A program made the position numbers and the translations under genes. From positions 131,432 to 195,431 of the forward strand of contig CAWDUQ010000001.1 of NCBI GenBank assembly GCA_963805495.1: 64,000 nt of DNA, in the 5' to 3' direction. The stretch comes from an uncultured Acidobacteriota bacterium. GTDB taxonomy: Bacteria; Acidobacteriota; Thermoanaerobaculia; UBA5066; Gp7-AA6. Below are positions 1-57,014 of the stretch, piece after piece; the stretch's first letter is position 1, and the number at the start of each line of letters is the position of its first letter. The notes below the pieces were generated by a model. It was not told the origin of the DNA. It was given only the letters and a program-made list of their open reading frames with translations, and ran no database searches.

Positions 1-237
1 GCGAACGGCACACACGCGCCGGTCGTGAGAGTCGCGACCCACGCGCGCCAGCCCCAGAATGCACCCGCGATGCCGGTTGCCGCGAGCAACATGGCAACGA
101 TTACGATCGGACTGACCTCGCCCCCAAAAGTGACGTTGTCCACGGCAGCGATAGCCCCGCCAGCAAACAGGCCGACGACGACCCGGGCCGGCAGCGTATG
201 GGCGAGGCCCTCAGGTGGCATGCGATCTCTTTCCGAG

Positions 238-314
238 GCCTAACGCGCTGCGCGCCAGCGGCGAGAGAGGACGCGAAGCCGACGAACGAGTCCGCTGCAC
301 GCGCGTGGCTAGGC
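238..314 (-). other. attC: integron attC site (variant core GCTAGGC)
   Basis: 77-nt imperfect palindrome GCCTAAC...GCTAGGC homologous to array consensus. Confidence 0.7.
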
Positions 315-701
315 GGCCGCGCCCGCCGGCAACCACCGTGCGGCCGCATCGGCGCTGTCGTCGGGCCGCGTGTTGAAGGCAATCGCCGCGCGCGGGGCTG
401 CCTTGCGAACCGCGTTGATGACGACCTCGAAAATTGGCAGGAGCCGAGGCGGCAGCCGGACACCAGCGCCGATCACGACGCAGTCATAGCTTGCCGAGGC
501 GAGCTGCCGCTCGACCGCCGGCCCGGCGGTCTCATCGGGCCTGATGAAGCCGACGTCCGCTTCCCATCCGCGCGAGGCAAACTGCTTCATCGCAAGCTCG
601 ATACCGGCCTGAACCTTCTGGATGGTCATGCCTGGCGGCAGTGCGGGGTCGGAAAAATCCACGGTGGCCGGATCGTAGCCGAGCAAAAGAACCCTCGTCA
701 T
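309..701 (-). CDS. hypothetical cassette protein (130 aa)
   Basis: single ORF filling cassette, stop inside attC. Confidence 0.35.
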   Translation of the reverse strand: MTRVLLLGYDPATVDFSDPALPPGMTIQKVQAGIELAMKQFASRGWEADVGFIRPDETAGPAVERQLASASYDCVVIGAGVRLPPRLLPIFEVVINAVRKAAPRAAIAFNTRPDDSADAAARWLPAGAAA

Positions 702-767
702 GATCTCTCCTTCGTCTTTCGAATCCCTCGTCTCGGGCCGCCTGATGGGCGGCGGTCGGGCGGCTTA

Positions 768-1030
768 TCGATACGCGTCTTTGCGATCAGCGACTCGCAC
801 GACGAGCACCACCAATTCGGCATCAGCGATTGAGTAAACGATGCGAAATCGGCGTACGCGGATCCGGTACCGATCGTCCTGGCCTGCGAGCTTCTCGCAC
901 CCGACCGGCCGCGGCTCCTCGGCAAGAGCAAGACTGCTCGCCACGATGCGCTGCCCGTCTTTCTTCTGGTCAACGGCCTCGATCTCCCTGGCCGCGGACG
1001 GCTTGATCCGGATGTCTCGACCCCTGACGG
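768..1030 (-). pseudogene. relE/parE-family toxin remnant (paralog of 16853..17116) lacking start codon and antitoxin
   Basis: about 85% nt identity to relE cassette; N-terminus replaced by degenerate attC remnant at 1023-1060. Confidence 0.5.
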
Positions 1031-1060
1031 GCGGCGAGTCCGCCGTACGCGCATGTCAGG
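1023..1060 (-). other. attC: degenerate/truncated attC remnant (CCTGAC...GTCAGGC)
   Basis: collapsed attC-like inverted repeat. Confidence 0.4.
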
Positions 1061-1062
1061 CG

Positions 1063-1216
1063 CGGGACCCAGGCCCGCCATGTCCGAGAAAAAGGCTCCG
1101 AACCCGAACCAGAGCACTGGACGGGTGGCACTGGCCAAACGCCGGTTGCCAACGACTGAATCGTAGGTCACGCGTACCACGAAGGGGAGTACGGCGAACG
1201 CGCTGTGGACCCTCAC
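1063..1216. repeat. 155-bp repeat (second copy 11786-11945)
   Basis: about 90% identical copy elsewhere in array, both immediately after an attC core. Confidence 0.7.
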
Positions 1217-1253
1217 CTCTACCCCTCAGCTCGCCCGTCAGGTGCAGCGTTCG

Positions 1254-1793
1254 TCAGGTGACACGCGCGCCGAATCGGTGCGGCAATCGTGCGCGCAACC
1301 AGCGCATCTGCCCACGATGATTGATCTCATCTTCGGCGACGTGAAACCAGGCCCAATGCACGTTCATCCTCGGATCGGCGCTGACGGTTCGGTCCAACCA
1401 GGCGTCGTCGCGCGAGGCGAGAGCTTCCAGGGTCTTCTGGCGTACGGTCGCCAACTGCTCCAGATAGTACTCCAGGGGCTCGCCGCGCAGTGTGCGCTGC
1501 CCCTCGGGCCCCAGCGTCAAGGCGGCCGCCCACGTCGAGTCCTCCTGAGGCGACAAATCGCGGTCTTCGAAGGTGAGGACTTGGTAGGCGCGTTCTACCG
1601 TGACCACATGGGCCAGGAGCGCACCAATCGAGTTACTCCGATCATCGTGCAGATGATCCAGTTCAGGAATGGTCATCCCCTTGACAGCGGCAACTGTGGT
1701 GGAACGGGCATATGTGAGAATGCCGACGAGTCTCCCAATTACCGGCGTGTAGCCCGGCAGTGGCTCGATCCGCAGTGATTCTGGCATCAACAA
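1254..1793 (-). CDS. DinB/DUF664-family (metal-dependent hydrolase-like) protein
   Basis: 179-aa ORF with DinB_2-like helix-bundle motifs (WAWFHVAEDEINHRGQ). Confidence 0.6.
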   Translation of the reverse strand: MLMPESLRIEPLPGYTPVIGRLVGILTYARSTTVAAVKGMTIPELDHLHDDRSNSIGALLAHVVTVERAYQVLTFEDRDLSPQEDSTWAAALTLGPEGQRTLRGEPLEYYLEQLATVRQKTLEALASRDDAWLDRTVSADPRMNVHWAWFHVAEDEINHRGQMRWLRARLPHRFGARVT

Positions 1794-1807
1794 GGAAGCT
1801 TTGTGTC

Positions 1808-1883
1808 ACCTGACGGGTGGCGGGTTAGCAGCGGGCGAGGAGCCGAAGGCGACGAGCGAGTCCGCTGCACGCGCGTGTCAGGC
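1808..1883 (-). other. attC: attC site (CCTGAC/GTCAGGC core variant)
   Basis: 76-nt, homologous to consensus. Confidence 0.75.
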
Positions 1884-1952
1884 AGCGTTGTTGATTGGCG
1901 CCAGGGGATGGTGCGACCGCCTCCCACCGCGAAGGGTCCGACTGGCGTCAGG

Positions 1953-2351
1953 CTAGCCCAACTCATAGTTCAGTGTCAGTGGATGCTCGGTCCCGTGCCC
2001 AAGGGCCGAGGTGCCCTCGCCGCGCAGGCCCACAAGCTCTCCCGTGCCGGAGCCAGGGACTACGGAGTAGGACTCCTTCGCCACGCCGTTCTCGAAGGTT
2101 CCAACGCGTTGGAGCACGAAGGTGCCCGCTTTCCCGGCAACGCGCCCGATGAAGCGCTCGAGCCCGACGAATGCGGCCGAAGCATCGCTGCGGTACATCA
2201 TCAAATATTCGACATGTCCCTCGCCCGCGATATCGCCGGTGAACGTCTTTGTGACCGCGGCCCGAGTCAACTTTGGCAGGTCCTGGCCCTCGCTATATGG
2301 CTTCTCTTCCCAGCTCTTGATGGCGAACCGGGCGTTTGCTACGTTCTTCAT
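1953..2351 (-). CDS. hypothetical protein (DUF3224-like), start at MKNVANARF
   Basis: ORF with GGGGG RBS 8 nt upstream of ATG; track N-extension is artefact. Confidence 0.5.
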   Translation of the reverse strand: MKNVANARFAIKSWEEKPYSEGQDLPKLTRAAVTKTFTGDIAGEGHVEYLMMYRSDASAAFVGLERFIGRVAGKAGTFVLQRVGTFENGVAKESYSVVPGSGTGELVGLRGEGTSALGHGTEHPLTLNYELG

Positions 2352-2484
2352 GGTTCTACCCCCGGCAAATGATCGGAACCTCGTTGCCCATGAGTGTTCT
2401 CTCCTCGGACGCCTCAAATCATCGCACCGTTCCATGACTCGATTGGACCTGCCGAGAAAACCTGCCATCCGTGGCCCGTACGCT

Positions 2485-2560
2485 GCGTAATCGGTAGCGC
2501 GTCAGCGGCGAGCGAAGAGCCGAAGGCGATGAGCGAGTCCGCTGCCTGCACGTGTTAGGC
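2485..2560 (-). other. attC: attC site (degenerate left arm)
   Basis: 76-nt, right arm GAGTCCGCTGC...GTTAGGC conserved. Confidence 0.65.
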
Positions 2561-3085
2561 GCCACTTGCGATGACCCTTCTCATAGTCTCTTCGGGGGTA
2601 TCAAGGGAGGTATCTAAGAATGCGTTTCGCGGAAATATGGCGCCCGTGAATTTGGCGTGCAGCGATGCGACGCGCTCGGGCCCGAGGTTCCAGCTGCTGC
2701 GCGCCGAATCGCGAGCAATGGCAACCTCCAGCCTCGGGTGCAGAACACAGATGCGCCATGCGATGTGGTTTCGCTTGAAGAATTCGCTGTACTCAAGGAA
2801 GGACTCCGGTGGGCTCTCATGAACAGTTGCATCAATCACGACAGGTCTCCCGAGCGCGACTGCCTCGCGTACCAAGGCGAACACGGCATCGTGGACTCGG
2901 CGGCGCTTTCGACGGTGCGCCGACGAGCCAAAGACGCCCCGATTCCTGCCGAATCTCTCGTGCCAGATGTCGTCCTCCGAAACCCGTACCCAGCCAGCCC
3001 GCAACGCCAGGAGTTCGGCCACCGTGGTCTTCCCACTTCCGCAGGTGCCGGTAACGATCAGGGCCCGACCTGTCAAGTCATTGCG
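2555..3085 (-). CDS. P-loop NTPase / kinase-like protein (probable TTG start)
   Basis: Walker A GTCGSGKTT near N-terminus; track ORF extended through attC. Confidence 0.5.
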   Translation of the reverse strand, partial: RNDLTGRALIVTGTCGSGKTTVAELLALRAGWVRVSEDDIWHERFGRNRGVFGSSAHRRKRRRVHDAVFALVREAVALGRPVVIDATVHESPPESFLEYSEFFKRNHIAWRICVLHPRLEVAIARDSARSSWNLGPERVASLHAKFTGAIFPRNAFLDTSLDTPEETMRRVIASGA

Positions 3086-3097
3086 GTCCCTGGTGGC

Positions 3098-3173
3098 GCC
3101 TAACGGGTGGCGGGTCTGCGGCGAGTGACGAGCCGAAAGCGCCGAACGAGTCCGCTGCACCCGCGGGTTAGGC
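3098..3173 (-). other. attC: attC site
   Basis: 76-nt GCCTAAC...GTTAGGC imperfect palindrome. Confidence 0.85.
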
Positions 3174-3412
3174 GGCGATCCTACGCCAGCCATGCGACCT
3201 TGAGGCCGTTCACGCTCTCCAGCCTGGCCCGATCCGCGGGCGTCGCACACCCAATCACGGGCATCCTGGCCGCGGTCCTTTTCGTCGACATCGACATTGG
3301 TGAAGCGGTGGGTGGTATTCCGACGTCGTCGATGTTCTTCCCCCGATGACCCGCAGGGACCACCGGATCCCCGGCCTTTCCGGCCGCTATGGAAACGCGC
3401 GCCGTGAGTCCG

Positions 3413-5476
3413 TCAAATCGCCAGTCCAACGTCGCCTTCGAGCACCGATGTCTTCAGCTGCGGGCGGTCTCCGCTCTTCCACAGCGCAGCGGTGAGTACC
3501 ACCCGATACCGGAGGGGCCCCCCGTCGGGCCGTTCGCTGCGCGCAATGGGACGTGGGATGCAGACGAACTCGGTGCGCATTTCATCGTTCGACACCCGGA
3601 CCTTCGCATAACCGTGTCCTCCCAGATCCACGAACTCGAGGTGCGGAGCGAGATCCGGATTGGACAGCGACCGCGCGCGCTCGAGGTCGAAGCTCTTCGC
3701 ATATTCCAGACACGCGCGGACGCCGTGCCTCAGCAACATGTTGAGGGTCCACTCCGGCTTCGCCCCCCCATCCCTGTCGGCCAGAAACAGCGGCCGCAGC
3801 GGAGCGTCCTTCGGAAGCTTGTGCTCGTAGGCCTCCATGGGGCCGGGACTGACGAGTGACGCGCCGACGAAACTCAAGCCGACGGGCGCGAACTTGCCGG
3901 GCGGGAGTTCGGCAGTCGCATATCCGGCCCAGAAGCTGTGGCGGTCGCCCGAGACGATGGCGAAGCCCGTGATCTTCGCGTCGCGAACGACATCGTAGAT
4001 CTCGGCGCGCTCGACGTACGCCGTGCCGTAGTCACCCCCGCCCATCGATGCGTACGTGTCTTTCGGCCACGACTCTTTGGTGAGACCCGCCGGCAGGTTC
4101 TGCGGATCGGCTCGCGAATCCAGAGCGCCCATCGAGTTCGCCCAGATTTTCCAAACCGCGGTTGAGCTCCTGAGCTTGTCCTTGAACCAGGCCTTCTGCT
4201 CCGCGCCGAGAATCGTCTGTGGCGGCGCGCTCCGTTGTGGATTGGCAACGTGCGCATCGTTGAAACGGACCTCGGAAGGGGGAGCGCCGCCATGGAACGC
4301 GCGGCCGCCGTCGAGGACCTGCATGAGAGGCTCGGGAGCCATTCCGATGAACTCGTTGCCGCCGAGCTTCTCGAGAGACGAGTCGCTGAAGGGGTCCGCG
4401 CTCCGATAGCTGTGCTGGTCGGTGATGATCACGTCCAGGTTGTGACCGTACCGCAGCGCCCGGTAGCCCTTGAGGCTGTTGATCGCCGTCAGGTTGTTCG
4501 GCTCCATCCCCAGCCCGTCGCTGTCGAACTCCGTGATGGGGACGTCCTTGACGGCTGGCGGATCGAAACGCTCGAGCGAACCGCTCGGCGCGGCGACACG
4601 GGCGGGGAGGTACTCGAACCAGGCCTGGTTCGCCGCGATCTTGACGCTCTGGCCCGGTTGCTCGATCGGCCCCGCCTTGACGATGCTCTGCCAGCCCTGC
4701 CACGAGAACTCGTGGTTGTCCCAGATGGCGACGAACGGCCAGCGCGCGCGGGCATCCTGGAGGTCGGGATCGGCGAGATAGCCTTTGTAGACGGCCCGGT
4801 AGCCGTCGACGGTCAACGGTATGTGGAAGTTGCCGGCCTTCGGGCCGTCCGGGTACCGCGCCACCTCGTAGATCGTCCGGTCGTAGCGTGTCTTCACCTC
4901 GTCGGGATACTCGACCACCTCGTAGATGAAGTCCCCCAGGTGCAGAACGAAGTCGAGCCGTCGGGCGGCGGGAGCGCGCTCATCTTCGTAGATCATCCGG
5001 CGGTAGGCGTTGAGCTTGCCCTCGTTGACGTCCTGACAGCTCACGAATGCGAAGTTCACCGTGCGCGGATCGTTGGGCAACGGCGCCGTCATCGTGCGGC
5101 CGACCCGGCTGCCGTTCCCGCCGGTGTCGGTGAACCGATACCAGTAAGTGCGCGCCGGCTTGAGTCCGCCAATCAGAACGCGCGCGGTCCAGTCCGCGGC
5201 GCTTGAGACCGGTGCCTGCGCGTGCGCGACGACACGGCGGAATGCCCCATCCTCGGCGACCTCGACGGTCAGGAGCTGGCGCGTGCCCTGCGTAAACGGA
5301 CGCCTCGTCCACAGGATGACGCTGTGCGGATCGGGATCGCCCGAGGCGACCCCCTGGGGATAGAGATCGCGCCGCTCATGCCAGGGGACACGCGATCCGC
5401 GAGCCGGTCCGGCCCATGCGAGCGAAGCACCCATTGCTGCTGCAGTTTTGAGAAAGGATCGGCGGCTGATCGGCAT
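3413..5476 (-). CDS. phoD: PhoD-like alkaline phosphatase / phosphodiesterase, Tat-secreted
   Basis: 687 aa, RRSFLK twin-arginine signal, PhoD metallophosphatase motifs. Confidence 0.85.
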   Translation of the reverse strand: MPISRRSFLKTAAAMGASLAWAGPARGSRVPWHERRDLYPQGVASGDPDPHSVILWTRRPFTQGTRQLLTVEVAEDGAFRRVVAHAQAPVSSAADWTARVLIGGLKPARTYWYRFTDTGGNGSRVGRTMTAPLPNDPRTVNFAFVSCQDVNEGKLNAYRRMIYEDERAPAARRLDFVLHLGDFIYEVVEYPDEVKTRYDRTIYEVARYPDGPKAGNFHIPLTVDGYRAVYKGYLADPDLQDARARWPFVAIWDNHEFSWQGWQSIVKAGPIEQPGQSVKIAANQAWFEYLPARVAAPSGSLERFDPPAVKDVPITEFDSDGLGMEPNNLTAINSLKGYRALRYGHNLDVIITDQHSYRSADPFSDSSLEKLGGNEFIGMAPEPLMQVLDGGRAFHGGAPPSEVRFNDAHVANPQRSAPPQTILGAEQKAWFKDKLRSSTAVWKIWANSMGALDSRADPQNLPAGLTKESWPKDTYASMGGGDYGTAYVERAEIYDVVRDAKITGFAIVSGDRHSFWAGYATAELPPGKFAPVGLSFVGASLVSPGPMEAYEHKLPKDAPLRPLFLADRDGGAKPEWTLNMLLRHGVRACLEYAKSFDLERARSLSNPDLAPHLEFVDLGGHGYAKVRVSNDEMRTEFVCIPRPIARSERPDGGPLRYRVVLTAALWKSGDRPQLKTSVLEGDVGLAI

Positions 5477-5768
5477 GGTCTCACTCCGTCCAGGCTGCAG
5501 TTGGCGTCACCTCAGGGTTCGGACGCGAACGCCCGCTGAGACAAGTACGTACTCTCTGCCCGTAAGTTGCCGTGGCGTGCAACTCGTCGATCAAATGCGA
5601 CGATCCGGCGATCGGAACGCCGGACGTCGTCGCCGGCCTTCCGCTTCGTTCGGCCCATGGCTGGATGGGACTCGCTGAACCGGTTGATACTTCCAGGGCC
5701 GCCTGTTTCAGCCGGAGGGCATTGCTGTCCGACTCCCGAGATGACGCCTGACTGGCCTTCCGACTGTC

Positions 5769-5844
5769 GCCTGACGGCCGGCGGGTCAGCGGTGAGCTCC
5801 CAGCCGAAGCCGAGGAGCGACTCCCCTTCACGCGCGGGTCACGT
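5769..5844 (-). other. attC: attC site (variant GCCTGAC...GGTCACG)
   Basis: 76-nt attC-like palindrome overlapping stop of 5828..6013. Confidence 0.6.
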
Positions 5845-6013
5845 CCTGCACCTGGACATTCTTTGCGAGCGTCTTGAAGCGAGGTCCGTTGGGCGGAACC
5901 ACGGTGATGGTGACGTGACGGCTCTTGCTCTTGTTGATGTCGCGTACGGTGCCGGACTTGCCTTTGTGCGCGCCGGCGACCACGTTACAAAAGGCACCCT
6001 CTTTCAACTTCAT
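5828..6013 (-). CDS. small KOW-like protein (61 aa); paralog at 51296..51463
   Basis: ORF conserved in two cassettes. Confidence 0.45.
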   Translation of the reverse strand: MKLKEGAFCNVVAGAHKGKSGTVRDINKSKSRHVTITVVPPNGPRFKTLAKNVQVQDVTRA

Positions 6014-6045
6014 CTATCCCTCCGCCAATCCGCGTCTCGCGCTGC

Positions 6046-6122
6046 CCGGCGCCCCGCATCACCTGCCGGCGGAAGCGAGCGAAGCCCGCTGTAGCCGGTC
6101 AGCTGCATGCGGAGGTTATGCG
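6046..6122 (-). other. attC: degenerate attC-like site
   Basis: GTCAGCTGCA...GGTTATGCGGC resembles long-class right arm. Confidence 0.4.
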
Positions 6123-6257
6123 GCATTTCGCTGAGACCGCGTCTGACTGTCGTCGTTTTGGACCCACATCGACCCATGGTAGTCGGCCGCTACCTGTCTT
6201 GTTTCCGGGGCGCGGCGACGCCCGGTCGGACGCACAACGCCGCCGGTGTGCCCTTTG

Positions 6258-6786
6258 CTAAGAGTTGTCGGAAAGCTCAATTAAAGCCAGGGTTTCCCCC
6301 CAGGTTCGGTAGATTCCAGAAACCAGGAAGAGCGATGTTGAGCCCGCTACGGCGAAAGGGGCAAAAGCCTCTCCGGCGATCAATCCCGCGCCGCTGCAGA
6401 TCAGGACGACGCTGGCAACGATCGGAACGCCGTTGTGGACGATCCTGTCCATCTTCGTCCTAATGGCCCTGAGATGGAGACCGCTCTGCACGCGGACTAT
6501 ATTAATTCGATAGATTGAGTCCCCAATCCCCATCGCACCGAAAATAACTCCTCTTGGCCAACTGGACCGCTACGGCACCAACACCGCCATGCTCTGGAGG
6601 AGGACCTCGGTGAAGCTGTACATCGCAGGCGTCAGCGATGCATGGTGCGATGTCCAACTTCCGGGAGGTCGACAAGCCGGTGCCAAGCGTGACGACAACA
6701 AACAGCAATACCACAAATACCGAGCCAGCCGCCCCGGTCGTGGTGAAGAAGTCGCTCCAACCGTTAAGCATCAGACTGTTCCTCAA
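6258..6786 (-). pseudogene. possible frameshifted small membrane protein (two overlapping ORFs) in lower-GC cassette
   Basis: ORFs 6502..6786 and 6258..6533 overlap in different frames; both hydrophobic. Confidence 0.3.
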
Positions 6787-6932
6787 CGTTCAGCGCGTTA
6801 TTGTGAAACTGAGACGCCCCCACACTTGGCGACACAAGTGCCGGCATGGAGCAACGACACTCGCACTCCCCAGTGCCAGGCTATCGGCGATACCGGCCGT
6901 TGTGGGACAAATGCCGTGTGACATCTAATGTC

Positions 6933-6992
6933 GCCTGACGCCCGGCATCAGCCGCTGCGCCAAGGGCTGTCCGCTGCACGCTCTTGTTAGGC
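6933..6992 (-). other. attC: attC site, short (60 nt) variant
   Basis: GCCTGAC...GTTAGGC. Confidence 0.65.
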
Positions 6993-7022
6993 CGCAGCAG
7001 GGCATCGACATCACTCCCCTGC

Positions 7023-7661
7023 CTACATCTGCAATAAGAAATAGATGACAAACAGGAGAACTGCGCCCAGACAGGCGCCGTAAAGCAACTTGATCCCCAG
7101 CGACGTGCGAATGCCCTCAGCGGGTGGCGGGAAGGGAATGCTGATCGCCCGTATGGCCGCCAGATAGCCTACCGTCCCCATCGCAATCCTTAACCAGTCA
7201 AACGCAACCCACTGTCGCACCATCGCCCGGATCATCGCAGTATCAGTAGTCGCGCCTGGAGCGCCTCTGGCAACTGCCCACAGCGCAGCGTTGCGTGGCC
7301 AGAACGCGAGGACCGTGAATATCAATGTCGCAAAAATCATTATCGCCGATAGGAACAGCAACAGTCGGTACTTCGGCGGTGTTGCCCAGCCGCTTATCAA
7401 CGCTCCTAGAGAAGCCAGCAGCAGCGCGGCAGAGCTTGGAATGAAAAACTCGCCTGTGTCTACAGGGTATCGCGGCCCGTATGGCAATAAGCTCAATGAC
7501 TCCGGCGGAGAGGCACTCCAGGCGCCCACGAGGACGCGCAGATCGAACAGCTTCGCGCCCAGAAGGACTCCCCAGGCGATTACCAGGATCCACAGAAAGA
7601 ACCGGGTGACGCGCATGCGCGTGAAGATGGTTCTGCTCGAGGGCTCGATTGTGGTAGTCAC
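7023..7661 (-). CDS. integral membrane protein (212 aa)
   Basis: multi-TM hydrophobic ORF. Confidence 0.5.
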   Translation of the reverse strand: MTTTIEPSSRTIFTRMRVTRFFLWILVIAWGVLLGAKLFDLRVLVGAWSASPPESLSLLPYGPRYPVDTGEFFIPSSAALLLASLGALISGWATPPKYRLLLFLSAIMIFATLIFTVLAFWPRNAALWAVARGAPGATTDTAMIRAMVRQWVAFDWLRIAMGTVGYLAAIRAISIPFPPPAEGIRTSLGIKLLYGACLGAVLLFVIYFLLQM

Positions 7662-7816
7662 GATTCCTCCTCGCGCGCCCTAACGCTCCGCTTCAGGCGC
7701 GGGCCGCGCAGCGGGATCACGAGCGGTTCGACCATGAGCGCCCGCATGGGCCCGCCCATCACCGACGAAGAGTCTACGAGCGCGCTGATTCAAATGGTCC
7801 ATTGTTGATCTCCGGC

Positions 7817-7888
7817 GCCTAACGATGCCGAATCATCCGCGCGACGCCAAGCGACTCGCGGCGCGTCGGCTGCATTCGGAGGTTAGAC
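7817..7888 (-). other. attC: attC site, divergent (72 nt, core GTTAGAC)
   Basis: GCCTAAC...GGTTAGAC. Confidence 0.6.
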
Positions 7889-7904
7889 GTCAACGCCGGG
7901 ATGG

Positions 7905-8837
7905 TCAGGCCTGCGGACGGGCGTCGATCCCGAACTCTGCTTTGACTCGGGCGTACCAGGCATCGTCGTCGAGCGATCCCCAGGCCACCCACTCCTCGTC
8001 GGTCATCGCTTTGCGCCAGGTGAGAAATGGCACGGCGTCCGGTCCCACTGGATGTCGGAGCTGCCAGGTGCCGCTGATGGCGATCTCAAGGACTCTGTCC
8101 GCCACCAGAGACGGCAACGCTGGGCTCTTCAACACGCTGATGTAGAACGCGGCCATGCGATTCTGCTGCGGATAGTGGGAGGCGCCTTGCGGGCCGCTGA
8201 TGCGCCGGGCCATCGGCGTGTCGACGATGCCCGGCTCGACAATCGCAACACGGATGTTGAACGGCTTGGCCTCCTGGGCCAGGCATTCGCTGAGCGCCTC
8301 CACGGCGAATTTGGACGCCGCGTACGCCCCCTGCGGTGACACGGCGATCCGTCCGCCGATGGATGCCACGTTGATGATGCAACCGCTTCGACGTCGTCGC
8401 ATGGCTGGCAGCACAGCCTGAATGCAGCGAAGCGTCCCGAAATAGTTGGTCTCCATGACGGAACGGAAGTCCGCGAGCGGAAGCTCCTCGACAGAACCCA
8501 TCCGCTCGATGCCCGCGTTGTTGACGAGCACGTCGATTGGCCCCATCTCCTGCGCGATGCGGCCGACAGCGTCCCTGACGGACCGGTCGTCATCGACATC
8601 CATCATGTAGACGGCAATCGCCAGGTTTTCGTCGCCAGCAACCTTCGCAAGTGCGGGCGCCCTGGCGGGGTCGCGCATCGTCGCTGCGACCTTGTGGCCC
8701 GCTCGGCCGAATGCCAGCGCCGTCGCGAAGCCTATGCCGCTACTGGTGCCCGTAATCAGAATGTTTGCCAAGTGTCTTGTCCTCTCCAGTCTCCTGGTTA
8801 CCGTTATTGTAACGTGAGGCGATCTTGTTGAAGTCAA
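7905..8837 (-). CDS. short-chain dehydrogenase/reductase (SDR)
   Basis: TGTSSGIG Rossmann motif, YxxxK. Confidence 0.85.
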   Translation of the reverse strand: MTSTRSPHVTITVTRRLERTRHLANILITGTSSGIGFATALAFGRAGHKVAATMRDPARAPALAKVAGDENLAIAVYMMDVDDDRSVRDAVGRIAQEMGPIDVLVNNAGIERMGSVEELPLADFRSVMETNYFGTLRCIQAVLPAMRRRRSGCIINVASIGGRIAVSPQGAYAASKFAVEALSECLAQEAKPFNIRVAIVEPGIVDTPMARRISGPQGASHYPQQNRMAAFYISVLKSPALPSLVADRVLEIAISGTWQLRHPVGPDAVPFLTWRKAMTDEEWVAWGSLDDDAWYARVKAEFGIDARPQA

Positions 8838-8838
8838 C

Positions 8839-8915
8839 GTCTAACGGGCGACGGGTCGGCGGCGAGCGCCGTAGCGAGGCGCAGGCGCGAGTCCGCTGCA
8901 CCCCCGCGGTTAGGC
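8839..8915 (-). other. attC: attC site (GTCTAAC variant)
   Basis: 77-nt. Confidence 0.8.
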
Positions 8916-9145
8916 GGCGTGCCGAGGTTCAGGTACGGTGCCATGGCGGTACGACCAGGCCAACCGGAAGGGGCATTCCTCGGTAGAAAGAATAATCGCC
9001 AATCGGAAAGCCCGAATATGCCGTGATCCGTTGCTCCGCGAGCATGCCGCAAGGGAAGGCGAGCACCAGATAAGCAACGACGATCAATACGGACCTTTTC
9101 CAAGGAGAGGTGCCTGCCTCGCGACGTGCGCCGAGCTACCACCGC

Positions 9146-9228
9146 GCCCTCGGACGCCGGGCTCGCGCCCACAGACCTACGGCGACAAGGACGGAGCGCC
9201 GCGAGTCCGCTGCAACCGCATGTTAGGC
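9146..9228 (-). other. attC: attC site, degenerate left arm
   Basis: right arm GAGTCCGCTGCAACCGCATGTTAGGC. Confidence 0.5.
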
Positions 9229-9540
9229 GGCCGCACATTCTGCGACTCTGGACCGAGCTGAACTCTCCCGCGCGAGGCCCGCAGCTTCCGCCACGATGCG
9301 ACGAATAGCATCCTGACTGGGTCGAGGCTTTCGCCGCGTTCGCTCATCCGCGTGCTCAGGTTTAAGACACCCCGATCAACTCACCGGTTCCCATCCTCTT
9401 GATGGATCTAGGGTTGCGTGCGCCGAGCTGCTGCCTCGGCTGTCCCCGAGAAGAGAAGCGCGCCCTCGGGGACGACCGCCGTCGAAAACGCAGCCCGCGG
9501 TTGCGTTCCCCCTTGCATGCCGCCAGTCCGTGTGCTACAT

Positions 9541-9560
9541 ACTGAACCGAATGGTTCAGT
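9541..9560 (+). promoter_or_regulatory. perfect dyad ACTGAACCGAATGGTTCAGT overlapping arsR start, candidate ArsR operator
   Basis: 9-2-9 palindrome spanning ATG at 9551. Confidence 0.5.
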
Positions 9561-9916
9561 ATTCGCGCGCCCACCTCGATGCCTCGTTCGCCGCGCTCTC
9601 GGATGCCACCCGACGCGGCGTTCTGGAGCAGCTGGGACGTTCCGACGCTTCGATCACGGACCTTGCCGAGAAGTTCCACATGACCCTCACGGGCATCAAG
9701 AAGCACGTCGGCGTCCTGGAGCAGTCCGGGCTCGTCACCACGGAGAAGCTCGGGCGCGTGCGGACCTGCAAGCTCGGCCCGCGCCGATTGGAGGAAGAGA
9801 CGGCATGGCTCGAGAGGTACCGCCATCTCTGGGACGCACGCTTCGACGAGTTGGACAAGGTCGTCGAGGAATTGAAACGAAAGGAGAAGGTCGATGGACG
9901 CAAGAAGAGAGAGTGA
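9551..9916 (+). CDS. arsR: ArsR/SmtB-family transcriptional regulator (track GTG start 9530 also possible)
   Basis: LSDATRRGVLEQL...HTH motif. Confidence 0.85.
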   Translation: MVQYSRAHLDASFAALSDATRRGVLEQLGRSDASITDLAEKFHMTLTGIKKHVGVLEQSGLVTTEKLGRVRTCKLGPRRLEEETAWLERYRHLWDARFDELDKVVEELKRKEKVDGRKKRE

Positions 9917-10409
9917 GGCCACACCGATGAAGAACCGCACGACTGTGGAACGGAAGTCCGAGCGTGAAATCGTCGTCACGCGAACTTTCAACGGTCCGGC
10001 GCGCATCGTGTTCGAGGCGTGGACCAAGCCCGAGTTGTTCAAGCAGTGGTGGGTGCCGAAGTCGATGGGAATGTCCCTGCTTTCCTGCGAAATGGATGTT
10101 CGTGTCGGGGGCAGGTACCGTTTGGAGTTCGCACACGGGGACTCACAGGCGGCGTTCTTCGGCACGTACAAGGAAGTAACACCGCACTCGCGCCTCGTCT
10201 GGACCAATGAGGAAAGTGACGAGGGATCCGTCACGACGGTGACCTTCGCGGAAACAGGCGGCAAGACGTTGCTCGTCATGCACGAGCTCTATCCCTCGAA
10301 GGAAGCTCTCGACGCTGCCGGCACCGGAGCTGCGGACGCAATGAGCGAGACGTTCGAGCAACTCGACGAGCTTCTCGTCGTCCTCGGCGCGAGCGTGGGA
10401 CGGTCATGA
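9894..10409 (+). CDS. SRPBCC / Aha1-domain protein (typical ArsR partner)
   Basis: 171 aa, AHSA1-like fold motifs; overlaps arsR stop. Confidence 0.8.
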   Translation: MDARRESEATPMKNRTTVERKSEREIVVTRTFNGPARIVFEAWTKPELFKQWWVPKSMGMSLLSCEMDVRVGGRYRLEFAHGDSQAAFFGTYKEVTPHSRLVWTNEESDEGSVTTVTFAETGGKTLLVMHELYPSKEALDAAGTGAADAMSETFEQLDELLVVLGASVGRS

Positions 10410-10575
10410 ACTCGTCGATCGCGCGGTCGTCGGCTGCCTCGCTGATTGGTCCCGACCTCGATCCCCCGTGGCACACCGTCTGCGAGTGGGCAATCGGTCC
10501 TCACGGCTGACCTCGGCGCGCTGCTCGCCCCGGCCGGCATGGCTCACATGCTGGCCGGGGCTTCCTGAAAGCAGA

Positions 10576-10651
10576 TCGTGCATCGGTCCGCAGCCGGGCC
10601 AAGGGCCGAGGCGAAGCCGAGCAGCGACTCCGCTGCACCCGGGGGTCAGGC
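10576..10651 (-). other. attC: attC site, degenerate (core GTCAGGC)
   Basis: right arm GACTCCGCTGCACCCGGGGGTCAGGC. Confidence 0.5.
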
Positions 10652-10712
10652 CCGGTAGATTCGCGCCGCGCCTCGGTCAATTCGCGGGCGCGACGGCTGG
10701 TAGACTGGCCGT

Positions 10713-11186
10713 ATGAAAACTCGACGCAGCAGGCTCGCTCTAGCCACCTGTCTTCTCTTCGTGACGGGCAGGGCGCTCGCCCAGGATTTGCCGAAGCTCG
10801 TCACCAGGGCGGACGTCGAGAAAGCCGCCCACGCGAAGTTCAAGGATGGCTGGCAGCCGATGCCGACGCAGGTCTCGTTCGCAGAAGATGGCGGCAACCT
10901 GCAGGTCAGCGTGAGCGTCGAGCCCCGTGAAGCGCAAAGCACCGTGCGGACCTGGGAAGCGACAATGAAGAAGATGAAGCCGGGCACCAAGGTCGACACC
11001 GTTCCGGGGCTGGGCAAAGACGCGATCTTCGTCAGCACCCGCCCGGACTCGGGTGCGCTCTATGTCGACTTCGACAAGCCGCTCGTGCAGCTCAACGTCG
11101 GCGTCGCCGGTGCCAAGACCCCCGAGCAAGCAAAGCAGCTCGCCCTCGACCTCGGCAAAGTGATCAGCCCACGGATCGGAAAATAG
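10713..11186 (+). CDS. secreted hypothetical protein (signal peptide)
   Basis: MKTRRSRLALATCLLFVTGRALAQD leader. Confidence 0.55.
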   Translation: MKTRRSRLALATCLLFVTGRALAQDLPKLVTRADVEKAAHAKFKDGWQPMPTQVSFAEDGGNLQVSVSVEPREAQSTVRTWEATMKKMKPGTKVDTVPGLGKDAIFVSTRPDSGALYVDFDKPLVQLNVGVAGAKTPEQAKQLALDLGKVISPRIGK

Positions 11187-11216
11187 TGTCTGGCGCGCAG
11201 GCTGCCGAACCCGCGG

Positions 11217-11678
11217 CTATGCGTCGGCGTACGCTCTTTCCAGTGCCGCCACGTCGAGCTTGACCATCTTCATCATCGCTTCCATCACAGCCTGCACTTT
11301 CTTCCGGTTCTTGTCGCCGATGAGCTCCATGAAGCGTCTCGGGACGATCTGCCAGGTGATGCCGAACTGATCCGTGATCCAGCCACACTGCGATGGGGTT
11401 GCGCCGGCGCTGATGAGCTTGTTCCAGTACTCGTCAACTTCTTCCTGGTCTTTGCAGTCGACAAAGAGCGAGAAACCTTCGGAGAATTTGAAGTACGGGC
11501 CGCCGTTGTAGCCCATGAAGGACTGACCACCGATGACGAATTCGGCGGAAGTGATCGGGCCGTCCTTGCCAGTGCGAGCGACGGTCTTGATCTCAGAGTC
11601 CGGGAACGTGGTGGTGTAGAACGCCATGGCAGCTTCGAGCTGGCCGTTGAACATCAGGAAAGGTGTCACTTTGGTCAT
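11217..11678 (-). CDS. VOC-family (glyoxalase/PhnB-like) protein
   Basis: 153 aa, PhnB/3-demethylubiquinone MT-like domain motifs. Confidence 0.7.
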   Translation of the reverse strand: MTKVTPFLMFNGQLEAAMAFYTTTFPDSEIKTVARTGKDGPITSAEFVIGGQSFMGYNGGPYFKFSEGFSLFVDCKDQEEVDEYWNKLISAGATPSQCGWITDQFGITWQIVPRRFMELIGDKNRKKVQAVMEAMMKMVKLDVAALERAYADA

Positions 11679-11706
11679 CTGTGTGTCTCCTTTGTTTTCG
11701 GTCTCC

Positions 11707-11782
11707 GTCTAACGGTTGGCGGGGCAGCGGCGAGCGCCGTAGCGAAGCGCAGGCGCGAGTCCGCTGCACCCGCGGGTTAGGC
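11707..11782 (-). other. attC: attC site (GTCTAAC)
   Basis: 76-nt. Confidence 0.85.
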
Positions 11783-11785
11783 GCG

Positions 11786-11945
11786 GGATCCAGACTCGCC
11801 ATAACCAAGGAAACAGGCTCCGAAACCGAACCAGAGCACTGAACGGGTGGCACTGGCTGAACGCTGGTTGCCAACGACCGAATCGTACGTCACACGTACC
11901 ACAAAGGGGAGTACGGCGAACGCGCTGTGGACCCTCACCTCTACT
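11786..11945. repeat. 155-bp repeat copy 2
   Basis: paralog of 1063-1216. Confidence 0.7.
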
Positions 11946-12130
11946 CGGGCCGCTACCAGCTGCTCGATATCTCGATCTGTGGCATGCCCAGACGCTCGCG
12001 CCGCATCTATCATCTGCCGCGACTCGAGCGCAGGCAGCTGTTGAATTACCGCAGGAACTCCTACCAAGCCTGTTATCAAGTACAGCGCCGCAGTCACCCC
12101 GAATGACCACAGGAGCTTGCGCCTCATCAT
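11945..12130 (-). CDS. small membrane-anchored protein, 3' part runs into 155-bp repeat
   Basis: N-terminal TM helix; ORF continues through repeat. Confidence 0.3.
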
Positions 12131-12141
12131 CGCTTTCCTGC

Positions 12142-12217
12142 GCCTAACGGGCGGCGGGTCAGCGGCGAGCGCCGTAGCGAAGCGCAGGCGCGAGTCCGCT
12201 GCACCCGCGGGTTAGGC
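12142..12217 (-). other. attC: attC site
   Basis: 76-nt. Confidence 0.85.
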
Positions 12218-12454
12218 GGCCACGTGAAGTTTGTCGTACAAGAACTCCGGTGCGAAGTCCGCGCCGTTGGGCCATGAGACTGTTCCGAGGTCGCGCGAAA
12301 CCACAAAGCGACGAAAGTAGTCTCGGTCCCGAAGCGGTTCGAAAACTGGTCCGTAGAGGTCGGCTGAGAGATCCACCTCGCCGCTCACGCCATCCTCGAA
12401 CTTCAACCAGATCGTGTAGTCTCTGATGTACCTAGCTTCCACGACGTCAACCAT
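12212..12454 (-). CDS. DUF2442-family protein (putative TA component)
   Basis: 80 aa; recurrent pairing with DUF4160. Confidence 0.7.
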   Translation of the reverse strand: MVDVVEARYIRDYTIWLKFEDGVSGEVDLSADLYGPVFEPLRDRDYFRRFVVSRDLGTVSWPNGADFAPEFLYDKLHVAA

Positions 12455-12458
12455 CTCT

Positions 12459-12800
12459 CTACTCCAAAGGTCGTATCGCCTTCAGCTCACGTCCCTCATG
12501 CGCCAGACGCCAGTTCTCGGCCAGTTCCTGGCGATGCAAACTCCACCATTCCATCACGTGACCCAACGCACGCGGCGGGAAGTCTCCCTCCACCGCACCG
12601 TCCGCGATTCGCACGGTCACTTTGTGCCCCGAGTATCGAGCGTGAAAATGGGCGGGCTCGTGCTCCCGGTGGTACATCGTGATCACGATTCCGAGAAACC
12701 GGCAAATCTCCGGCACCTGCAAATCGTAACCCGATGCACCCGGGCCGCCCAATAGGCGGAGAGCCGACGACTCCCAAGCATCCGTGGTCAGGCGCCCCAT
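12459..12800 (-). CDS. DUF4160-family protein
   Basis: 113 aa. Confidence 0.7.
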   Translation of the reverse strand: MGRLTTDAWESSALRLLGGPGASGYDLQVPEICRFLGIVITMYHREHEPAHFHARYSGHKVTVRIADGAVEGDFPPRALGHVMEWWSLHRQELAENWRLAHEGRELKAIRPLE

Positions 12801-13012: not shown

Positions 13013-13130
13013 GCCTAACGGGTGGCGGGTCAGCTGCGGGCGCCCAACCGCCACCAGGTCCCTTGACTCACCACAGCGTCCCTTCCGCCATTTCTGCATG
13101 GCGACCGTCAGCTGCACCCGCGGGTTAGGC
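13013..13130 (-). other. attC: attC site, long class (118 nt)
   Basis: GCCTAACGGGTGGCGGGTCAGCTGCGGGCGCC...GTCAGCTGCACCCGCGGGTTAGGC. Confidence 0.85.
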
Positions 13131-13409
13131 GCCCTTTGATAGCTCACGCTGCAGCCGCTCGGCTAGAAATTGCTTCAGCAGGGACTGATACGGAATGTCG
13201 CGCTTGTTGGCCAGGACCTTGAGGTGACCAATCATCGACTCGGGGAGCCTCAGGGAAATTGTGCGAAGCGTCGGTCTTAGACTCGGGAAGGCCCGACGCT
13301 GAGCACCGCTCCAGTCCACAAAGTCAGCCGAGTCGTGCTCAGCCCAGAAGCTGCGCTCCTGCTCCTCTGTTTCGAACGTCGGAAGCTGCTTACGCTTTGC
13401 TTTGCTCAT
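13125..13409 (-). CDS. brnA: BrnA-type antitoxin (CopG/RHH)
   Basis: 94 aa. Confidence 0.75.
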   Translation of the reverse strand: MSKAKRKQLPTFETEEQERSFWAEHDSADFVDWSGAQRRAFPSLRPTLRTISLRLPESMIGHLKVLANKRDIPYQSLLKQFLAERLQRELSKGA

Positions 13410-17385: not shown

Positions 17386-17461
17386 GCCTAACGGGTGGCG
17401 GGTCAGCGGCGAGGCCCGACGCGAAGCGGAGGGCCGAGTCCGCTGCACCCGCGGGTTAGGC
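17386..17461 (-). other. attC: attC site
   Basis: 76-nt. Confidence 0.85.
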
Positions 17462-17513
17462 GGCCTATCAATGCGTGTACCAGAGGGAGCGATTCGCATC
17501 TCGTTCAGGCAGT

Positions 17514-54816: not shown

Positions 54817-54827
54817 GTTCTTGAGCC

Positions 54828-54945
54828 GCCTAACGGGTGGCGGGTCAGCTGCGGGCGCCCGACCGCCACGATGGCCCTTGACTCGCCACGAACTTCCCTC
54901 TCGCCAAACCGCATGGCGACCGTCAGCTGCACCCGCGGGTTAGGC
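54828..54945 (-). other. attC: attC site, long class
   Basis: 118-nt. Confidence 0.85.
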
Positions 54946-55308
54946 GCCCTATCCCTGTCGGGTTTACACGCCACGCGACACCTCGCTCACCTCAGACCCC
55001 GACCACGGGATGCGCCGGCTGGCGCGCGCTACGGATTGTCCTCCCTCTCGCCACTCGCGCGCCAGAGCGGCGCGGATTACGACGGGGGGCGGGCCGACAG
55101 ATAAGCCGTCTGGATGCCGTGCCCATGCCCGAGCCTGACTGCGCTCTGCTCCTGGAGCCCAACTAGTCGGCCCGCATCCCGCAGGCGGACGGCGCGCAGA
55201 ACTCCTACCGATTACGCCAACCTCTCCCCTCCGGACACAATCGCCTGCCTCGTGACCGTCGACGCGACTATCCAGCCCGCGCGCCGGCCGCCGTCTTACG
55301 TGCGAAGC
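54946..55308. repeat. family A cassette body
   Basis: paralog. Confidence 0.75.
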
Positions 55309-55384
55309 GCCTAACGGGTGGCGGGTCAGCGGCGAGCGCCGTAGCGAAGCGTAGGCGCGAGTCCGCTGCACCCGCGGGTTAGGC
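55309..55384 (-). other. attC: attC site
   Basis: 76-nt. Confidence 0.85.
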
Positions 55385-55598
55385 GGCGCTTCACCGCCAC
55401 GGTGACCTGCAGCCGAAAGCCTTTCGGGACCTACGCCCATGACGGCGCTTCTCCGGGAGCCACGGCAGCCCCATACATAGAGACACCGCAACTCGCTCCG
55501 CGTTCAGAACTACCGTTGTCGACGCAAGCGCCTCGCCACGCTGGAAAAGCCTTGGGGAGGAGGGCGTGACTCGGGGCCCTCATCTCTCCCCCACGTCC
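55385..55598. repeat. family B cassette body
   Basis: paralog. Confidence 0.75.
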
Positions 55599-55716
55599 GC
55601 CTAACGGGTGGCGCATAAGCTGCGGGCGCCCGACCGCCATCAGATCCCTCGCCTCGCTACGGCGTCCCTTCAACCACTTCTGCATGGCGACCGTCAGCTT
55701 CATGCGCGGGTTAGGC
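55599..55716 (-). other. attC: attC site, long class
   Basis: 118-nt. Confidence 0.85.
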
Positions 55717-56079
55717 GCCCTTTCCCTTTCGGGTTTACACGCCACGCGACACCTCGTTCACCTCAGGCCTCCACCACGGGATGCGCCGGCTGGCGCGCGA
55801 TACGGATTGTCCTCCCTTTGGCCACTCGCGCGCCAGAGCGGCGCGGATTACGACGGGGGGCGGGCCGACAATTGCGTCGTCTGTCGCCCAGGCCGATACC
55901 CGAGCCACGATGCGCCCTGCTTCTGGAGCCGCGATAGTCGGCCCGCATCCCGCAGGCGGCCGGCGCGCAGAACTTGTACCGATTGCGCCGAGCTTTCCCC
56001 TCCGGACACAATCGCGAGCCTCGCGATCGTGGACGCGACTACTCAGCCCGCGCGCCGGTCGCCGTCTTACGTCAGAAGC
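55717..56079. repeat. family A cassette body
   Basis: paralog. Confidence 0.75.
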
Positions 56080-56155
56080 GCCTAACGGGTGGCGGGTCAG
56101 CGGCGCGCGAGGAGCCGAAGGCGATGAACGAGTCCGCTGCACCCGCGGGTTAGGC
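56080..56155 (-). other. attC: attC site
   Basis: 76-nt. Confidence 0.85.
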
Positions 56156-56367
56156 GGCGCTTCACCGCCACGATGACCTGCAGCCGACCGCCTCTCCTGC
56201 CTTACGCCCACGACCGCACTTCTCGGGGCGCCACGAATGCCCCTTGAAAAGAGACACCGCACACGACCGCATTCGCAACTATCGTTGTCGACCCCGGCGC
56301 TTCGCCACGCTGAAAAAGCCCTGGGCAGGAGGGCGTGACTCGGGGCCCTCATTGCTCCCCACCGTCC
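56156..56367. repeat. family B cassette body
   Basis: paralog. Confidence 0.75.
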
Positions 56368-56443
56368 GCCTAACGGGTGGCGGGTCAGCGGCTCGTGAGG
56401 CGCCGAAGGCGCCGAACGAGTCCGCTGCACCCGCGGGTTAGGC
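56368..56443 (-). other. attC: attC site (first, intI-proximal)
   Basis: 76-nt. Confidence 0.85.
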
Positions 56444-56923
56444 CGCTGGTTCACGCCGGCCCCTCTTCCCGCCAACGGGAAGACCCAGACGAACACCGAT
56501 TCGTTCCGCGATCCACGCGATGCCAATAGTTCCGCCGATCCACAGCACGGTGCGCGCGTAACGATCGGCTGGAGCAGGAATGAGCATCGACAGCGGTAAA
56601 CCGACAAATGGAACGACGAGGGTCCAGAGGATCAGCGTTGCGGCGGCTGTTAGAGCGAACGCGTGCAGCTTAAATGGAATCTGCCTGCCCATCCGGGCCG
56701 AACCCAAGAGCGACAGGCGGACCGAGATCTCCGTCACGACCAAAAGGCCCGTCAGGAGGCAGAAGAGCAAGAGACCTGACGCCACGCGCGTGTTAATGCC
56801 GGAGACAACAAGGCTTTCCTTCCATGAGGCCGCATGCAACTGAAATCCCACGAACACGAGCGCCCAGCTTCCAATCATCAAGACAACTAAGACCCATCCG
56901 CGTGCGGCCTCCGAGCGCTTCAT
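56438..56923 (-). CDS. integral membrane protein (first cassette)
   Basis: 161 aa multi-TM. Confidence 0.5.
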   Translation of the reverse strand: MKRSEAARGWVLVVLMIGSWALVFVGFQLHAASWKESLVVSGINTRVASGLLLFCLLTGLLVVTEISVRLSLLGSARMGRQIPFKLHAFALTAAATLILWTLVVPFVGLPLSMLIPAPADRYARTVLWIGGTIGIAWIAERIGVRLGLPVGGKRGRREPAA

Positions 56924-56933
56924 GACTTCGAGC

Positions 56934-57014
56934 GGCCTAACGCTTGCATAGGCTGTAACTTCGACTTCCTAAGCGATTCTGTCAATCGCTGCATCGCCCA
57001 CCCCCCGCGCCTCT
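56934..57014 (-). other. attI: putative attI site between intI stop and first cassette
   Basis: GCCTAAC half-site at 56936 followed by non-attC sequence up to intI stop codon (57015). Confidence 0.5.

Follow-up and report, generated by a model that had tools for sequence, protein, structure and literature searches.

A 99-site attC array beside an inverted integrase gene: a probable sedentary chromosomal integron with a conserved imuA-imuB flank

The integrase gene, its candidate attachment site and the attC array

The stretch of DNA analysed here (64,000 nucleotides of contig CAWDUQ010000001.1, from an uncultured bacterium placed in the Acidobacteriota; referred to below as the window) carries an integron integrase gene (intI, 57015-58211), an attI-like site (56935-56973) and 99 gene cassettes marked by attC sites, all of them adjacent to one another. 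From these components and their conservation in relatives, we consider the locus very probably a sedentary chromosomal integron of the inverted-integrase type, either working or recently working. The main features are the following.

57015 to 58211, - strand: intI, intact, 398 amino acids, with its stop codon toward the array.
56935 to 56973, - strand: candidate attI, CTTAGGAAGTCGAAGTTACAGCCTATGCAAGC-GTTAGGC on this strand with the predicted cut after the G; it starts about 40 nt past the intI stop and is conserved in the relatives L001 and L002.
56438 to 56923, - strand: first cassette open reading frame (ORF), 161 amino acids, membrane-like, without a Pfam family; its ATG lies 11 nt past the GTTAGGC of attI.
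56368 to 56443, + strand: the attC nearest attI, a typical 76-nt site (DNA fold of -32.6 kcal/mol, z = -6.25).
54828 to 54945, + strand: example of the long attC class, 118 nt, with the same R box, L stems and extrahelical bases and a longer variable centre.
238 to 56443: cassette array with 99 confident attC sites, from the core counts and the covariance model R1 described below; the + strand is the bottom (recombinogenic) strand and the cassettes are on the - strand.

The integrase matches PF00589 (5.8e-36) and PF13495 (2.1e-29), and reaches 434 bits on the "integron integrase" model TIGR02249 (cut-off 265), with the XerC and XerD models far under their own cut-offs. It aligns with the solved Vibrio cholerae enzyme VchIntIA (2A3V) with an E-value of 3.8e-83, and the alignment includes the catalytic residues of tyrosine recombinases (R...HxxR...H...Y) as well as the additional domain specific to IntI, where a segment of the protein aligns to LPTALKEKYPNAPYEFRWHYLFP of VchIntIA. 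The TIGR02249 and 2A3V matches are each split in two stretches around an insert of about 20 residues. Past the stop codon (57015-57017), about 75 nt of the - strand lead to GCAAGC-GTTAGGC (56935-56941). Relatives were collected by a scan of one genome per species, whose IntI loci are labelled L001, L002 and so on, and in an alignment of the window with L001 and L002 the stretch from the intI stop to the first GTTAGGC is conserved as TTAGGAAGTC-K-AAGTTACAGCCTA-W-GCAA..GTTAGGC. Such conservation is as expected of an attI site, and we therefore treat it as the candidate attI, a function assigned from its sequence and position. A perfect TTGACA hexamer lies just upstream of it (56980-56985), without an acceptable -10 element. 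The TAA stop of the first cassette ORF falls within the R'' box, GCCTAAC, of its own attC.

The core heptamer, counted as GCCTAAC or GTTAGGC on both strands, occurs 191 times in the window. About 5 occurrences were expected from dinucleotide-preserving shuffles, and none of 100 shuffles reached 191. Cores fitting the R''/R' pattern (RYYYAAC...GTTRRRY) pair exactly, as GCCTAAC...GTTAGGC, in 88 elements, of which 73 measure 76 nt, 13 measure 118 nt, one 79 nt and one 114 nt. The covariance model R1 was trained on the 33 sequence variants of the 76-nt element. Its unfiltered scan of the entire window gives 85 + strand sites, 72-79 nt long and scoring 37-105 bits, 11 of which have one core mutated. 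Scores of the - strand at the same sites are only 14-28 bits, a gap which implies that the element is strand-asymmetric and that every copy has the same orientation. Adding the 14 long sites (the 13 of 118 nt and the one of 114 nt) to those found by R1 gives the confident total of 99 attC. They span from 238-314 to 56368-56443, at a density of 1.75 per kb and with a uniform orientation (99 of 99), and the R1 scan places none to the right of 57 kb. Four or five weak or truncated remnants are also present (1022-1061, 6044-6121, 6933-6992, about 9150-9228 and 10582-10651). The array is dense only between 12.1 and 56.4 kb, and its sites are sparse and degenerate in the first 12 kb; the cores are perfect at about 90 sites in the 12-56 kb part. 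Mean pairwise identity among the 76-nt sites is 88%, in line with the reported trend toward homogeneous attC in long arrays (PMC4889954), and 99 sites are well above the 10-20 attC beyond which an array counts as that of a sedentary chromosomal integron (PMC9024848).

Folded as single-stranded DNA, the + strand of the site forms an imperfect hairpin made of a 7-bp R box, an unpaired spacer (5 nt/2 nt), two 6-bp stems and a paired variable tip. One extrahelical base, a C, lies between the two 6-bp stems and is followed by an extrahelical T, both of them on the 3' arm and on the + strand only. In attC sites it is the 3' arm of the bottom, recombinogenic strand that carries the extrahelical bases, so that the + strand here corresponds to the bottom strand; the orientation of the ORFs supports this independently. 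The structure is maintained by compensatory change. In the 33 distinct 76-nt sequences pairing is kept in 91.5% of the cells, compared with 29-36% when the partners are slid, and pairs changed on both sides number two in the L helix and five in the central helix. The L-box changes are GC to CG in five sequences and GC to AU in two (GCGGGT/ACCCGC, GCGCGT/ACGCGC and GCGCAT/ATGCGC are examples of the variants). Covariation scores 0.140; shuffles give 0.045 (none of 500 reaches the observed value) and the slid controls at most 0.038. An attC site is defined by its R and L boxes, the unpaired spacer in the middle, extrahelical bases, a terminal structure that varies, and a length of 57-141 nt (PMC5371416). 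All of these are found here: the hairpin is imperfect, its central spacer is unpaired, its L stems carry extrahelical bases on one strand only, the variable terminal structure is kept by pairing, and the sites measure 72-118 nt.

A first-pass annotation of this DNA had described about 105 copies of an element of about 76 nt, at 1.8 per kb, which is essentially right if the 99 confident sites and the roughly five decayed ones are taken together, and had called the family homogeneous, as the identity among the 76-nt sites confirms. The inverted-repeat attC architecture that it read between the GCCTAAC and GTTAGGC ends is borne out by the fold and by the covariation, and where two or three extrahelical bases had been anticipated, two are present, the C and the T on the 3' arm of the + strand. 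Its element length applies to most sites, the exceptions being the 14 sites of 114-118 nt. Its statement that the element lies between essentially every ORF was too broad, as roughly one cassette in three lacks a substantial ORF and the array is dense only from 12.1 kb. The + strand, on which it read the sites, is the recombinogenic bottom one; the - strand serves as the functional top strand.

The array adjoins the 3' end of intI, at the stop codon, and no attC is found on the 5' side of the gene. In 61 of the 99 cassettes a - strand ORF is the longest and spans the cassette; in 7 the longest is on the + strand. Cassettes, attC top strands and intI all lie on one strand, the - strand, as in the "inverted integron-integrase" class already described (PMC4889954; PMC8352920; PMC13323075). 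The Vibrio/Xanthomonas type proposed at first does not apply. In the classical layout intI is transcribed away from the cassettes, with attI and the cassette promoter (Pc) at its 5' end, whereas here the array is 3' of intI and the cassettes are co-directional with it; moreover, the nearest relatives, which are arranged likewise, are metagenome-assembled genomes (MAGs) of Acidobacteriota and not Gammaproteobacteria. The earlier observation of an IntI homolog beside the array is upheld by the TIGR02249 and 2A3V matches, and the adjacency of the two stands as well, with the contact placed at the 3' end of the gene. Outside the window, R1 finds arrays of attC sites adjoining intI in 14 further loci, which belong to several phyla. 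All matches downstream of intI are on the strand opposite intI, and the only two upstream ones (L050 and L062) are on the intI strand, the pattern that a fixed relation between the bottom strand and attI predicts for inverted and classical layouts. Loci whose IntI is 58-80% identical to that of the window are inverted, and the classical layouts seen are all at 59% identity or less.

Relatives and the chromosomal flank

The closest IntI proteins (79-80% identity) are those of two Acidobacteriota MAGs, L001 and L002, followed at 52-60% by others from Thermoanaerobaculia, other Acidobacteriota, Eisenbacteria, Gemmatimonadales and further groups. Downstream of intI, the 76-nt attC family of the window recurs in L001 and L002, and L005 has 58-76-nt versions of it. 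The order imuA-imuB-intI-array is also that of L001, L002 and L005, whose IntI is 59-80% identical and whose MAG contigs reach 463 kb; L021, on a contig of 811 kb, shares it in part. The linkage occupies 57015-63189 in the window, 840-5191 in L001, 2103-6512 in L002 and 1923-10978 in L005, and the Acidobacteriota MAG contigs having both the same attC family and the synteny measure 291-811 kb. No transposition genes were found in the 7-kb flank. The synteny across relatives indicates that the element is chromosomal and inherited, which fits the term "sedentary"; the fixed location is seen at the intI-side flank, the one covered by the window. In L005 (11831-20956), shortened attC sites of 58 and 70 nt with the same arms occur in many identical copies, showing how far the variable centre can be reduced in this lineage, down to a minimal hairpin.

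The flank contains the following.

58215 to 59572, - strand: two toxin-antitoxin modules (ParE with antitoxin; PIN with ribbon-helix-helix, RHH), between marC and intI, without bounding attC.
59600 to 63189, - strand: chromosomal flank with marC, imuB (60260-62221) and imuA (62218-63189), on the same strand as intI.
60451-60599, 61519-61667, 61711-61859 and 62253-62401: copies of a palindromic repeat inside imuB and imuA, with the 25-nt core only at 62416-62440.

At the position of the two toxin-antitoxin modules, L001 has the ParE module alone. A dnaE2 gene beside imuAB is absent from the window, L002 and L005, and no LexA box was found near imuA or intI with patterns of the gamma, alpha, Gram-positive and myxobacterial types. 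A small ORF of the Xre/Cro helix-turn-helix type (73 amino acids, 63240-63461, + strand) is divergent from imuA across an unusually A+T-rich spacer, and could be a local regulator of imuAB. The palindromic repeat is about 90-150 nt long and is present in four to five copies within window positions 60451-62440. Its core is GTCGTAGGGGCGGCCCTTGTGGCCGCCCTCC and the complement, and the copies are in frame, adding the peptide repeats PVVGAGLVPALPSSVAEEGGHKGRPYDGS to both proteins; the ImuB proteins of relatives align as two blocks flanking an insert. These copies look like in-frame insertions of the miniature inverted-repeat transposable element (MITE) or repetitive extragenic palindromic (REP) type, and are reminiscent of the Rickettsia palindromic elements. 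In base composition, the cassette bodies have a G+C content of 61.9% and the chromosomal flank one of 70.1% (238-56941 and 57015-64000, respectively). The GC skew of the + strand is -0.076 in the cassettes and +0.066 in the flank, though genes are on the - strand in both, and reading a replication orientation from it was judged uninterpretable without the whole replicon.

Cassette content, amplified families and the distal array

The cassettes have a median size of 492 bp (range 283-2868 bp). Pfam annotation covered about 65 cassette ORFs and about two-thirds of those annotated have no Pfam family. The cargo is typical of chromosomal integrons, being made up mostly of small proteins of unknown function. 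Several cassettes carry toxin or antitoxin genes, and these are listed here together with one example of each of the two amplified families and the distal part of the array.

1 to 12141, no strand assigned: distal array with 8 attC (37-89 bits), mutated cores, about 5 remnants and larger cassettes.
12212 to 12800, - strand: DUF4160/DUF2442 pair, a putative toxin-antitoxin, with a second pair at 40951-41425 and a lone DUF2442 at 29400-29804.
13125 to 13698, - strand: BrnT toxin and CopG-type antitoxin cassette.
16853 to 17345, - strand: ParE toxin and RHH antitoxin cassette, with a ParE-like ORF at 16262-16516.
18143 to 18478, - strand: MazF/PemK toxin cassette, with an identical copy at 38609-38944.
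54828 to 55308, - strand: example of the 481-bp family (11 copies, 21363-56079), with a 363-bp body, always with a 118-nt attC.
55309 to 55598, - strand: example of the 290-bp family (22 copies, 21073-56367), with a 211-215-bp body and a 76-nt attC.

Further cargo includes a GNAT acetyltransferase, thioesterases, an alpha/beta hydrolase, a DinB/MST protein, a TonB_C protein and an SLH protein, and the ten larger unknown ORFs tried gave no match to the PADLOC defence models. About 55 cassettes are unique. Among the others, 18133-18785 is 100% identical to 38599-39251, and 17462-18056 is 99.7% identical to 19969-20563; the members of these pairs are distant and have different neighbours, which is consistent with recent copying of single cassettes. 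When whole cassettes are compared (17386-18056 with 19893-20563, and 18057-18785 with 38523-39251), the bodies are 99.7-100% identical and the attC centres differ. The attC of the latter pair has 3 differing positions, including a compensatory pair. Such differences suggest that attC sites have exchanged sequence with one another, homologously or by gene conversion.

Together the two amplified families account for one third of the array, and the 290-bp one alone for 22% of its cassettes; copies of the latter are 69-100% identical. A Shine-Dalgarno-like GGAG precedes an ATG 15 nt into the 290-bp cassette, which would open a possible ORF of 49-51 amino acids, MRAPSHALLPRAFP..VDNDS..AVVAPGEAPSWA. 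The frame is kept in 18 of 21 copies, with indels in multiples of three, and ends in ...WA followed by TAG, TAA or TGA. The ratio of non-synonymous to synonymous polymorphism (pN/pS) of this ORF of about 50 residues is 0.76, and only two homologues were found among 5.8 billion protein clusters. Variation has no three-base periodicity in either family, no frame of either has an excess of synonymous change, and neither has a match in Pfam or PADLOC. In the 481-bp family, no coding signature is present in any frame. As to RNA, the 290-bp family has a conserved weak terminator-like hairpin (GCCCTCCTGCCCAGGGC-TTTT), and the 481-bp family has three long, GC-rich invariant helices with hypervariable loops between them. 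A structured RNA was rejected for both: the RNAalifold covariation term of the 290-bp family is just -0.37, with 5 of 45 pairs changed on both sides, and for the 481-bp family the minimum free energy gives z = 0.03 and -0.10 for the two strands relative to shuffles, the helices being invariant.

A 481-bp cassette directly precedes a 290-bp cassette in 5 of 11 cases in the window, and also in the metagenome contig L082 (1802-2463). Both families occur with the same attC type in four small metagenome contigs (L081-L084), one of which is ordered 481, 481, 290. A search with nhmmer for both families in 80 IntI loci, including the 10-kb arrays of L002 and L005, gave no match. The two families are lineage-specific.

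The distal end of the array has a different appearance. Most proximal attC score 90-105 bits, compared with 37-89 for the eight sites in the first 12 kb, where a mutated core pair such as GCCTGAC...GTCACGT is found and where the larger cassettes code for a PhoD phosphatase, an SDR protein, a DinB/MST protein, DUF3224 and an AAA kinase. The leftmost attC is at 238-314, and the array thus reaches the edge of the window, as had been noted when it was first described as running off that edge and being larger in truth. Judging by the decay, the array's old end may lie near the left edge, and a much larger array is not implied.

Interpretation and comparison with known integrons

The identification as a sedentary chromosomal integron with an inverted integrase brings together the attC anatomy, the membership of IntI in the integron integrase family and the conserved chromosomal synteny, on which the earlier proposal of a very large sedentary chromosomal integron is also borne out. 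The - strand reads imuA, imuB, marC, two toxin-antitoxin pairs, intI, the candidate attI and then at least 99 promoterless cassettes, each ending in an attC. The + strand of an attC would fold as single-stranded DNA into the imperfect hairpin described above, the shape of which IntI would recognise, and the enzyme would cut the GCCTAAC of the bottom strand between C and AA (between G and TT on the top strand). Recombination between two attC would excise a cassette as a circle, and recombination between attI and attC would re-insert it beside intI, where it could be transcribed. These excision and insertion steps are taken from established integron biology. Transcription of the cassettes would probably come from read-through of intI, which is the simplest possibility, or from a promoter in the spacer between intI and attI, and the scattered toxin-antitoxin cassettes would counter-select large deletions. 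Present-day activity of IntI, the position of the cassette promoter and any SOS control are likewise presumed.

Several observations weigh against this identification, or at least against its simplest form. The extrahelical bases of attC are usually T and G, and here they are C and T. Searching Rfam, which has no attC family, gave no real family at gathering threshold over the window, nor by E-value over 54.4-57.0 kb. The differing attC centres of cassettes with near-identical bodies are not predicted by a simple model in which the cut is at R'. IntI carries, in addition to its insert, which is proline-rich, a C-terminal extension of about 50 amino acids, and both are unusual. A scan with the sigma-70 consensus found no promoter between intI and attI, around attI or across 37-57 kb, and the distal attC decay with distance from intI. 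The last three points would also fit a fossil integron, in which IntI is inactive or unexpressed and the array is static and slowly decaying: the insert, of low complexity, and the extension are lacking in VchIntIA, the scans gave no promoter-like site, and the distal attC have mutated cores, lower scores and truncated remnants. This alternative, which is compatible with the identification as an integron, seems to us unlikely but deserving of some weight. Against it, intI is an uninterrupted ORF whose catalytic and IntI-specific regions can be aligned, the region of the insert is also covered in the relatives at 79-80% identity, the roughly 90 sites in 12-56 kb keep perfect cores, and the 76-nt sites are homogeneous. 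The distant cassettes of 99.7 and 100% identity with different neighbours, moreover, point to recent events involving single cassettes.

Another concern is the assembly, which could have inflated the number of cassettes by joining or duplicating segments from one or several strains. The two repeated families, which take up a third of the array and include copies that are 100% identical, would fit with this, as would the lack of any record of the exact IntI protein among the public assemblies searched, where no independent copy of the contig was seen; short-read assemblies of soil also usually break at integron arrays, the longest in one large study being 14 kb (PMC13323075). We nevertheless hold such an artefact to be improbable: the unique cassettes and paralogues differing by up to 30% are unlike a collapsed or looped repeat, the orientation is perfectly uniform, and independent metagenome contigs carry the same attC type and the same order of a 481-bp followed by a 290-bp cassette. 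It is harder still to regard the repeats as ordinary intergenic palindromes of the REP or MITE kind that resemble attC and have an integrase nearby by coincidence. Palindromic intergenic repeats are common in high-G+C genomes, and another such family is present inside imuA and imuB. The 99 sites, however, all have one orientation, are confined to one side of intI with none in the 7 kb on its other side, and end exactly at the conserved site past its stop codon; they have the RYYYAAC and GTTRRRY cores, strand-specific bulges and a covarying centre, ORF stop codons lie within the R'' box, and the same family is found beside intI in other species. Taken together, this makes the coincidence barely conceivable.

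The prototype of the inverted arrangement is the integron of Treponema denticola, in which intI, cassettes and attC top strands are likewise on one strand and the array follows the 3' end of intI. It differs from the present element in its host, which belongs to the Spirochaetes and not (as is probably the case here) to the Acidobacteriota, in its attC family, and in that the linkage to imuA-imuB is found here. The T. denticola array has about 45 cassettes, compared with at least 99 in the window. Inverted integrases have also been reported as a sub-clade of the IntI of soil and freshwater. With Vibrio, and the V. cholerae superintegron in particular, the element shares around a hundred or more small cassettes, homogeneous attC, cargo of unknown function, toxin-antitoxin cassettes and duplicates (PMC9024848; PMC13108822). 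The phylum is different, the G+C content is 63% here, and intI is co-directional with the cassettes with attI at its 3' end, whereas that of Vibrio is divergent, with attI and Pc at the 5' end. The attC repeats of Vibrio (VCRs, Vibrio cholerae repeats) are about 120-130 nt long, those of the window 76 or 118 nt. The ilvD-linked integrons of Xanthomonas are similar in being chromosomal, in occupying a fixed, vertically inherited locus in a high-G+C host and in having a species-specific attC family. Their arrays are short (a few to about 20 cassettes), intI is often inactivated and the layout is the classical divergent one; the present element has 99 cassettes, an intact intI, an inverted layout and imuAB in place of ilvD.

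Integrons are already known from Acidobacteriota (PMC8618304; PMC8352920), and the chromosomal arrays from which Ghaly et al. 2021 (PMC8352920) derived an attC model specific to the taxon are from the same phylum, with attC conserved within a taxon. L001, L002 and L005 are chromosomal integrons of this kind and share the attC family of the window. In the literature found, the 57 kb and 99 sites of this single array exceed any reported for the phylum. Every component is thus of a known kind, and what is unusual is the size for a soil-type lineage other than Vibrio. In complete genomes, 93% of the complete integrons are gammaproteobacterial, and in the literature found Vibrio is the only genus named for arrays that reach hundreds of cassettes (PMC9024848).

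The conserved linkage also allows a more speculative proposal, namely a "mutate and shuffle" unit in which damage-induced transcription of imuA-imuB would read into intI and the first cassettes, and in which the 290-bp and 481-bp families would act on the array itself (as internal terminators, promoters, insulators, addiction cassettes or self-amplifying cassettes) instead of being cargo. The possibility of coupling between integrase and mutasome stems from the position of intI and attI directly downstream of imuA-imuB, on the same strand, which is conserved in L001, L002 and L005. We regard the proposal as a long shot.

Outside Vibrio, arrays with some 100 cassettes have hardly been documented, and the element described here means that very large cassette reservoirs also exist in a lineage with inverted integrases, while leaving the concept of the integron unchanged. 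The window offers clean attC sites, together with a candidate attI, with which to study cassette expression in the inverted layout, and its roughly 55 unique cassettes, mostly of unknown function, are usable for gene-discovery screens. The features most worth attention are the linkage of imuAB to intI and the two amplified cassette families.

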